The position numbers and the translations under genes are program-made. This document shows, piece by piece, positions 8,846-9,235 of a DNA stretch of 64,000 nucleotides. A model generated the notes under the pieces. That model was not told the origin of the DNA, ran no database searches, and worked only from the letters and a program-made list of their open reading frames with translations. Positions within the stretch are counted from its first letter, which is position 1, and each line of letters starts with the position of its first letter. This DNA comes from Escherichia phage ECp13, in the sequence record PP274704.1; one strand, 5' to 3'.

Positions 8846-8905
8846 GATTTAAAATAATTTCACAAAGTTGTTTACATGCTGATGAGGTAGTGATACTATT
8901 ATCTC
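8846..8905 (+). repeat. direct repeat copy A (early promoter cassette) flanking the ipI-locus gene
   Basis: GATTTAAAATAATTTCACAAAGTTGTTTACAT...GTGATACTATTA repeated at 9176-9235. Confidence 0.75.
8870..8899 (+). promoter_or_regulatory. early promoter
   Basis: -35 GTTTACA, 17-bp spacer, -10 TACTAT. Confidence 0.65.
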
Positions 8906-8929
8906 ATCAAAATTAATTAGGAAAATAAA

Positions 8930-9187
8930 ATGAAAACTTTCAAAGAGTTTGCTACAAAAACCACTATCACTGAATCTTCTCACGGTATGGAAGTAAAGCT
9001 TGGAATGGCTTTAGCTGAAGCTGAGCGTCTTTTCTCTCGTATTAAAGAACTTGCTGCTGCAGTCGATCCTTCATCTTTTAAAGGAGACCAAACTAAAGTT
9101 AAAGCACTTTTAGCATTATGCTCCGATGCAGGAGAAATTGCTAAAAATGGTTCTAAGATGAAGAAACGATTAGAAGATTTAAAATAA
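8930..9187 (+). CDS. internal protein (IP) with capsid targeting sequence, ipI locus
   Basis: 85 aa; N-terminus MKTFKEFATKTTITE resembles the T4 IP targeting sequence MKTYQEF..; position after 57B. Confidence 0.65.
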   Translation: MKTFKEFATKTTITESSHGMEVKLGMALAEAERLFSRIKELAAAVDPSSFKGDQTKVKALLALCSDAGEIAKNGSKMKKRLEDLK

Positions 9188-9235
9188 TTTCACAAAGTTG
9201 TTTACATAGGGTTTTAGTTGTGATACTATTACCCT
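9176..9235 (+). repeat. direct repeat copy B (early promoter cassette)
   Basis: Near-identical to 8846-8905. Confidence 0.75.
9200..9229 (+). promoter_or_regulatory. early promoter
   Basis: -35 GTTTACA, 17-bp spacer, -10 TACTAT. Confidence 0.65.

Follow-up and report, generated by a model that had tools for sequence, protein, structure and literature searches.

The internal-protein locus of Escherichia phage ECp13: early-promoter modules around Ip5 as probable patches for gene exchange

Introduction

In a stretch of 64,000 nucleotides of the Tequatrovirus (T4-like) Escherichia phage ECp13 (PP274704.1; hereafter the window, at its full length), an 85-aa gene named Ip5 stands between gene 57B and the homologue of tRNA.4, bracketed by two direct repeats that each carry an early promoter. 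This is one of the internal protein (IP) loci of T-even phages, and the segment 8842-9240 is probably a unit of a modular locus, in which the promoter modules act as homologous-recombination patches for the exchange of IP genes. Some ten IP open reading frames (ORFs) with a conserved leader of 11 residues were reportedly described by Repoila, Tetart, Bouet and Krisch (EMBO J 1994). Most of these ORFs are said to have had on both sides a conserved element of about 70 bp, with an early promoter and a stem-loop, and recombinational shuffling was reportedly proposed.

Two later papers (Arbiol 2010, PMC2839356; Comeau 2014, PMC4122927) credit Repoila et al. 1994 with promoter/stem-loop elements at both IP loci and with the proposal of shuffling. 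As these papers describe them, the 1994 elements agree with the ones of the window in the locus (57B-ipI-tRNA.4), in the Ip5 of T2 and RB70, in the early promoter and A/T-rich stem-loop flanking the ORFs, in the conserved N-terminal leader, and in the shuffling by recombination within and between phages. The window has the features of such a module: a T4-type early promoter, an A/T-rich stem-loop, and a position on both sides of an ORF at the boundaries of variable content. There is no substantive difference from the 1994 picture. What we add is a present-day comparison of 21 genomes, in which breakpoints are made explicit, two genera prove to have empty alleles, and some modules are chimeric. 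Because architecture and mechanism have been in print since 1994 and the gene already has a name, the observation is a rediscovery of what was already known.

A second described system is that of the PeSLs (promoter-early stem-loop cassettes) of RB49, phi1, and other T4-like phages (Arbiol 2010; Comeau 2014). Like the IP modules, PeSLs combine a repeated promoter with a hairpin and flank small nonessential ORFs; they mark the boundaries of insertions, deletions, and replacements among close relatives, and homologous recombination has been proposed to act on them. PeSLs have a sigma-70-like promoter and a separate G/C-rich stem-loop terminator with a polyG/polyC stem, whereas IP modules have a promoter of the T4 early type and a weaker, A/T-rich hairpin around the -10 element. 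A terminator scan of 8840-9260 found none, and the hairpin arms are not followed by a run of T. Because it has no separate G/C-rich terminator hairpin, the module of the window is not a strict PeSL. It corresponds to the IP-associated stem-loops that Arbiol 2010 (PMC2839356) calls "weaker, more AT-rich".

Integron cassettes provide a more distant parallel, as they also form an array of small, interchangeable, often defence-related genes between repeated hairpin-forming elements at one site. The IP locus differs from them in having no integrase and no attC or attI, in the promoter carried by each cassette, in the general homologous recombination proposed for it, and in belonging to a strictly lytic phage. 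The neighbours are gp1, 57A, 57B, tRNA.4, tRNA.3, and tRNA.2, and a recombinase is annotated in none of the 21 loci compared. The IP locus is not an integron, as it lacks an integrase and its units are each equipped with a promoter.

The products of these loci include T4 IpI (IPI*), Ip2, and Ip3, which are injected inhibitors of GmrSD. Ip5 resembles them in its small size, position, leader, I-T-E motif, and promoter context, and it either replaces IpI or adjoins it (in RB7). It differs from IpI in having no sequence similarity past residue 22 and in its predicted helical hairpin.

Results

Two Promoter-Bearing Repeats Bracket Ip5

A repeat search identified a single family of direct repeats, L (8842-8910) and R (9172-9240), which are 69 nt long, 83% identical, and spaced by 330 nt from start to start. 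A first-pass annotation, made by a model from the sequence alone, had described the segments 8846-8905 and 9176-9235 as near-identical. The direct repeats are real, but the wording was somewhat generous, as identity over these 60 nt is 49/60 (82%). Both repeats contain an exact run of 32 nt, GATTTAAAATAATTTCACAAAGTTGTTTACAT (8846-8877 and 9176-9207), followed by 12 nt of promoter spacer where L and R agree at only 4 of the 12 positions, then an exact run of 12 nt, GTGATACTATTA (8890-8901 and 9220-9231), and a short further stretch of similarity (TCTCATCAA in L, CCCTATCAA in R). The 32-nt word has only these two sites in the window, even allowing three mismatches, and shuffled sequences give an expectation of 0. 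Each copy holds the complete early promoter that had been claimed for it, of T4 type, with TTTACA-17-TACTAT and a TG upstream of the -10 (8871-8899 and 9201-9229).

All the elements of the unit lie on the + strand. The left conserved flank is gene 57B (8403-8857), whose last codons, GAT GAT TTA AAA TAA, lie inside repeat L. In this repeat, an early-promoter module that we term type A, the upstream block is followed by the -35 element TTTACA (8871-8876), a 17-nt spacer, and the -10 element TACTAT (8894-8899), and an inverted repeat, GATGAGG/TCTCATC (8880-8909), surrounds the -10. The type-A leader with its ribosome-binding site, AAATTAATTAGGAAAATAAA (8911-8929), also precedes IpI in T4 and Ip7 in G8, T2, and Lv5cm. 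It leads into the Ip5 gene (8930-9187, 85 aa), where codons 1-15 (8930-8974, MKTFKEFATKTTITE) correspond to the capsid-targeting leader. Repeat R, a module of type B, has the same upstream block, a -35 at 9201-9206 and a -10 at 9224-9229, surrounded by the inverted repeat ATAGGGT/ACCCTAT (9206-9237). The right conserved flank of the variable interval is the tRNA.4 homologue (9258-9443), a predicted membrane protein of 61 aa.

The end codons of the preceding gene are inside each repeat, and both genes finish with D-L-K-stop: ...DDLK-TAA at 8857 for 57B and ...EDLK-TAA at 9187 for the 85-aa ORF. This part of the first-pass description stood for both repeats, with the reservation that 57B is frameshifted in the window and reaches the repeat only in the frame of its relatives. 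Compared with Shigella phage Sfk20, the 57B of the window has a 1-nt deletion near 8762 (GGACCC to GGGCC), and its ORF stops at 8804 instead of 8857. In relatives 57B is annotated as an RNA ligase or as the anti-CBASS protein Acb1; the Sfk20 copy is in frame yet unannotated. The deletion may reflect a sequencing error, or else an anti-CBASS gene may truly be inactivated here.

The Content of the Interval Is Variable

A megablast search with 8400-9500 of the window matched 748 records of T4-like phages, the top one being Sfk20 (99.4%). The interval from 57B to tRNA.4 was compared between the window and 20 other genomes, tabulating genes and junctions. Among these 21 genomes, the interval contains from 0 to 4 genes in 14 arrangements. 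It is empty in slur13 and in Klebsiella phage Roth76. Single genes are Ip5 (window, Sfk20, and Lutter), IpI (T4 and Aplg8), Ip6 (RB18 and KIT03), Ip7 (G8), and an IP of 74 aa in Klebsiella phage 15882-5. Pairs are Ip5-Ip6 (GiZh, Sf21, and G3F6), Ip5-IpI (RB7), Ip5-Ip7 (T2), IpI-Ip6 (ECML-134), Ip9-Ip7 (Lv5cm), IpI-Ip7 (LF82-8), and Ip7-Ip9 (mogra), and VR26 has four genes, a hypothetical ORF followed by Ip9, Ip5, and Ip6. Number, identity, and order of the IP genes therefore vary, in line with the hypervariability that the first-pass annotation had ascribed to the locus. IpI, Ip6, Ip7, and Ip9 are each seen in first and in second position, and a promoter module is present at every gene junction in the Tequatrovirus, Mosigvirus, and Jiaodavirus loci compared.

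The comparison across T-even genomes that had been proposed as a check showed that the repeats mark the boundaries of variable content in close relatives. Both repeats are present in all eight other Tequatrovirus Ip5 loci examined. The unique part of Ip5 matches 268 records, against the 748 matching the flanks; hence the gene is not universal at this position. Among close relatives, neither of the two findings that the first-pass annotation had named as a refutation is therefore seen.

Two of the more distant loci deserve a separate description. In VR26 (Gaprivervirus), an ORF of 121 aa, Ip9, Ip5, and Ip6 lie between 57B and tRNA.4 (198-1470 in interval coordinates), in an operon-like arrangement that contrasts with the one promoter per gene of Tequatrovirus. 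The Klebsiella phages of the genus Jiaodavirus keep the TTTCACAAAGTTGTTTACA block and the tRNA.4 leader at around 88-91% identity (15882-5, 1191-1563; Roth76, 1512-1588, in interval coordinates), and their megablast match to the window is limited to this short stretch of block and leader.

Breakpoints, Empty Alleles, and Chimeric Modules

Breakpoints were defined as the ends of homology in pairwise BLAST comparisons of the interval of the window with the other loci, and these ends fall at three conserved blocks of the module. Relative to T4, where IpI replaces Ip5, homology extends to 8950 and resumes at 9182, in the stop codon and upstream block, so that the segment exchanged is 8951-9181; the left edge of this exchange (8950) is thus 21 nt inside the coding leader and not at the repeat. 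Relative to RB18, G8, and GiZh, right-hand homology begins at 9217, in the -10 block. Relative to RB7, the difference is an IpI unit inserted at repeat R.

The empty locus of slur13 is that of the window minus exactly one 330-bp period, and its sole junction joins the upstream block of L to the spacer, arm, and leader of R. A similar pair of filled and empty alleles is found in Jiaodavirus, where, in terms of the two modules of 15882-5, the junction of Roth76 is the upstream block of the first joined to the second. Other junctions are chimeras in perfect register. In the modules between Ip5 and IpI of RB7 and between Ip5 and Ip7 of T2, the 5' arm is of type B, whereas the 3' arm and the leader are of type A; the module between Ip9 and Ip7 of Lv5cm combines a 5' arm of type C with a 3' arm of type A. 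Between 57B and Ip9 of Lv5cm, the tRNA.4 leader is fused onto an IP coding start. Folding shows the hairpin to be lost in two of these chimeras, Ip5>IpI of RB7 (-0.6 kcal/mol) and Ip9>Ip7 of Lv5cm (-1.0 kcal/mol), and the Ip5>Ip7 junction of T2, judged by its arm sequences, has the same mismatched arms.

The exact register, the breakpoints inside identical blocks, and the reciprocal-looking products argue for homologous crossover, as illegitimate joining predicts otherwise. The suggestion that the cassette is exchanged by homologous recombination thus gains support from four sides: the variable content, the breaks inside modules, the empty allele shorter by one period, and the in-register chimeras.

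Anatomy of the Module and Its Hairpin

Laying out the modules of the Tequatrovirus junctions in register reveals a common plan of about 70 bp. The module begins with an A/T-rich upstream block, TAAAATAATTTCACAAAGTT, which reads TAA-TTTCACAAAGTT after 57B, Ip5, and IpI and has a shorter variant after Ip6, Ip7, and Ip9. Then comes the -35 element, GTTTAC(A/T). The spacer, 17 nt long, falls into three main types, namely A (..CTGATGAGGTAGTGA), B (..GGGGTTTTAGTNGTGA), and C (TTTAGATAGGGTAGTGA). Next is an extended -10 of the form TG-A-TACTAT, in which TACTAT is the -10 element and has TA after it. A 3' arm pairs with the spacer, being (C/T)CTCATC in type A and CCCTAT(C) in types B and C, and downstream of the module are the leader, which carries the ribosome-binding site, and the conserved coding start ATGAAAAC. 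The arms of the inverted repeat therefore lie in the spacer and just downstream of the -10, which is placed in the loop. In the window, L is of type A and R of type B.

The spacer mismatches between L and R are matched by changes in the 3' arm; hence the differences are not random, and the hairpin around the -10 is preserved. The hairpins were judged from the folding energy of each module, column-wise covariation having been dropped because the stems of types A, B, and C differ in register relative to the -10. Folded as DNA, L has -5.4 kcal/mol (z = -2.0) and R -7.7 kcal/mol (z = -3.5). Among 25 distinct modules, 21 have folding energies between -4.6 and -8.1 kcal/mol, compared with a mean of -2.2 +/- 1.8 kcal/mol for 44-mers taken at random from the window. 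The other early-promoter-like sites of the window are mostly above -3.5 kcal/mol, with one clear exception at 12254.

The exception (12254-12297) is not an IP promoter. It has a 12-bp inverted repeat, TAGGCTCATGAT...ATTATGAGCCTA, around the -10, folds at -7.8 kcal/mol with the same hairpin geometry as the IP-locus modules, and is located just downstream of an ORF of 105 aa (11935-12252). More generally, early promoters on the + strand of the window (11916, 12254, 23591, 27602, 29041, 39703, 53747, and 62782) make up a family of repeats, each of about 70 bp, that is dispersed along the sequence. Several share an upstream block, TTTTCACAAA, and a transcribed start, CTATCAACTAC, and at other sites of the genome the family might serve as substrate for ectopic recombination. 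Specificity of the upstream block TTTCACAAAGTT for the IP locus was considered and rejected, since close variants are found at 39703, 53747, 11916, and 27602.

Ip5 as an Internal Protein

The order gp3, gp1, 57A, 57B, Ip5, tRNA.4 agrees with that of T4, in which the region between 57B and tRNA.4 is an IP locus. The 85-aa gene is named Ip5, ipV, or internal head protein in RB51, ime09, GiZh, PST, RB32, and T2. Its product is 99% identical to Ip5 of T2 and 92% identical to the RB70 protein called "Ip5" in UniProt, and it has a full-length match to PHROG 3499, "internal head protein" (E = 1.2e-49). It starts with MKTFKEFATK, the first seven residues being those of T4 IpI, and the leader consensus MKT(F/Y)(K/Q)EF is common to all 12 IP genes compared. 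Alignment with T4 IpI is possible at residues 1-22 only (MKTFKEF, a T-rich stretch, and T-I-T-E), so the first-pass statement that the two proteins differ was correct. The T-I-T-E at residues 12-15 of Ip5 aligns with the T-I-T-E at residues 16-19 of IpI and is invariant across the Ip5 alignment. A leader-terminal (L/I)-x-E motif is the cleavage site of the prohead protease gp21, and in the assembly of the T4 head such a leader is capsid-targeting. By leader, I-T-E motif, locus, and PHROG family, Ip5 thus appears to be a T-even internal protein. Its first 15 residues, which end in I-T-E, would be removed by the prohead protease as in IpI, and the mature protein of about 70 residues, a predicted helical hairpin, would be packed in the head and injected with the DNA.

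Searches beyond the family return little. No Pfam family matches Ip5, a search among 5.8 billion proteins gives five protein clusters, all of them Ip5, and a literature search found no functional study of it. Beyond the leader, the AF2 model has two long helices forming a helical hairpin, at moderate confidence (pLDDT 72). Function by homology was considered and set aside, as there is no Pfam family, the only clusters are those of Ip5, and the fold search is uninformative (see Discussion).

Other Features of the Window

Three further ORFs have internal-protein-like N-termini. The first (11273-11746; 157 aa, start MKSYAQFLNEA) matches phrog_2280, of unknown function, and lies right after a tRNA remnant. 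The second (16775-17248; 157 aa, start MKTYQEFITEA) matches phrog_3155, internal virion protein, and directly follows denV with no promoter module in front. The third (60438-60602; 54 aa, start MKTYKEFIKE) matches phrog_1823, of unknown function, and is far from either IP locus. Between e and denV the window has no IP genes, unlike T4.

The tRNA cluster (10640-11270) is largely missing. Sfk20, the closest relative, has ten tRNA genes, and relative to it the window has undergone three deletions. The first (265 bp, junction 10723) extends from the start of tRNA-Gln into tRNA-Pro; the second (402 bp, junction 10848/10849) starts within tRNA-Ser and ends within tRNA-Arg, which leaves a Ser/Arg hybrid; and the third (364 bp, junction 10884-10887) removes an ORF of 116 aa. 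None of the 12 best database relatives has these deletions. ARAGORN finds no tRNA in the whole window, and Rfam gives two tRNA-like matches (10710-10781 and 10784-10880).

Discussion

The modules are direct repeats found at every junction of a locus with dispensable contents, and this is the basis for giving them a role in exchange. They are primarily promoters, whose copies in direct orientation offer patches of identity to the very active homologous-recombination machinery of T4. The -35 lies in a patch of 32 nt, the -10 and the 3' arm in one of about 24 nt, and the leader and coding start provide some 40-60 nt. Whether the partners were two co-infecting phages or two copies within a concatemer, a crossover in such a patch would replace, add, reorder, or delete IP genes, and one between L and R would delete Ip5 as a 330-bp unit. 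Both the pathway and the direction of each event are inferred from the products described above.

Several observations weigh against this account. The promoters at 11916 and 53747, with 42 kb between them, agree at 82% of positions in a stretch of 70 nt, the ones at 23591 and 62782 share an exact word of 29 nt, and the upstream block TTTCACAAA(G/A).. recurs at 39703, 53747, 11916, and 27602. As these other early promoters are equally alike, much of the identity between L and R can be explained by promoter function alone, and at the level of sequence L and R are ordinary members of the dispersed early-promoter family, with no cassette-specific signal. Furthermore, boundaries of gene-sized segments would be intergenic under nearly any mechanism, since only intact genes survive selection. 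In VR26, Ip9 and Ip5 are preceded by gaps of 8 nt only, with no promoter module, hence the module is not required for the gene. The Ip5 of VR26 (78% nucleotide identity) still ends in EDLK-stop, with no shared upstream block after it, which makes the terminal codons an old feature of both 57B and Ip5. For the same reason, the idea that the EDLK-stop of Ip5 is a recent recombination scar copied from 57B was rejected. As for the protein, the confidence of the AF2 model is only moderate, the model being built on an alignment of four sequences, and Foldseek against the PDB retrieves only generic helical hairpins (best E = 0.66), with no resemblance in fold to IpI past the leader.

One could hence suppose that L and R are just a pair of strong early promoters whose likeness is maintained by selection for contacts with RNA polymerase (UP-like block, -35, and extended -10), with no role in exchange, and that the locus varies by illegitimate recombination or by co-conversion through a nearby homing endonuclease such as SegB. 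The likeness of distant promoters that flank no cassette yet have the same upstream block, and the VR26 Ip5 with no promoter in front, are what this explanation would predict, and PMC4122927 cites the preferential inheritance that SegB confers on the tRNA region next to the locus. On the other hand, it does not account for chimeric modules perfectly in register with arms from two parents (RB7, T2, and Lv5cm), for empty alleles in two genera that are exact one-module products, or for breakpoints clustered at three identical blocks, where illegitimate events predict otherwise. The SegB route also finds little in the window, as no segB-like gene is seen in 9443-11270 and Pfam has no match for the ORFs there. 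This explanation is therefore unlikely, although not negligibly so.

Another explanation takes the module as a dedicated mobility signal: an enzyme specific for structure or sequence would recognise its -10 hairpin, whether single-stranded or cruciform, and cassettes would move as excised circles, in analogy to integron attC sites and to the mini-circles proposed for the PeSLs of RB49 and phi1. The hairpin is indeed kept with different arms (types A, B, and C, and those of Mosigvirus) and is much stronger than at other early promoters of the window, as given by the folding energies above, and Arbiol 2010 (PMC2839356) detected PeSL mini-circles in the analogous system. However, that paper terms the IP elements analogues, not homologues, of PeSLs. 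Moreover, hairpin-less recombinant modules persist in natural phages (RB7 and Lv5cm by folding, T2 by its mismatched arms), crossovers are placed in the identical blocks that flank the arms, as plain homologous recombination predicts, the 21 loci are uniform in having no annotated recombinase gene, and a similar hairpin is present at the non-IP promoter 12254. We give this explanation a slim chance. It is equally improbable that the -10 hairpin is a structure-specific signal of a broader kind, either a cruciform or single-strand hairpin that focuses the initiation of recombination at IP junctions or an RNA element of read-through transcripts that insulates the expression of each cassette; if it were, the IP locus would be a targeted cassette-exchange system in a lytic phage, and not a passive repetition of promoters.

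Finally, the repeat could be a relic with no present-day consequence, left when the promoter region was duplicated in tandem once, long ago, and Ip5 was trapped by chance. This would fit a period of 330 bp made of one gene and one module and the first place of Ip5 after 57B in the eight other Tequatrovirus Ip5 loci examined, but deserves next to no credence, being already contradicted by modules that flank five unrelated IP genes in varying order, by IpI, Ip6, Ip7, and Ip9 each occurring in first and second position and Ip5 in third in VR26, and by the coexistence of filled and empty alleles within two genera.

Ip1, Ip2, and Ip3 each inhibit one distinct GmrSD, with no cross-protection, and the proteins of both Ip loci probably all target GmrSD variants (PMC12373910). 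Ip5 may neutralise a host nuclease, and these results make another GmrSD-type type IV restriction variant the likelier target; that it acts on a defence other than GmrSD, as the first-pass annotation had considered, seems very doubtful. T2, which encodes Ip5, is still restricted by the GmrSD of ECOR21 and of ECOR17 (PMC12373910), hence native Ip5, if made and injected, does not cover these two.

The IP loci can be regarded as the interchangeable store of injected anti-restriction proteins of T-even phages. The demonstration in 2025 that Ip2 and Ip3, like Ip1, block distinct GmrSD gives functional weight to the picture of 1994. Of the T4-like records matching the flanks, roughly one in three has Ip5, T2 included. 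The repeated promoter modules would explain why the set of IP genes is so easily reshuffled, which bears on host range and on the choice of phages for therapy.

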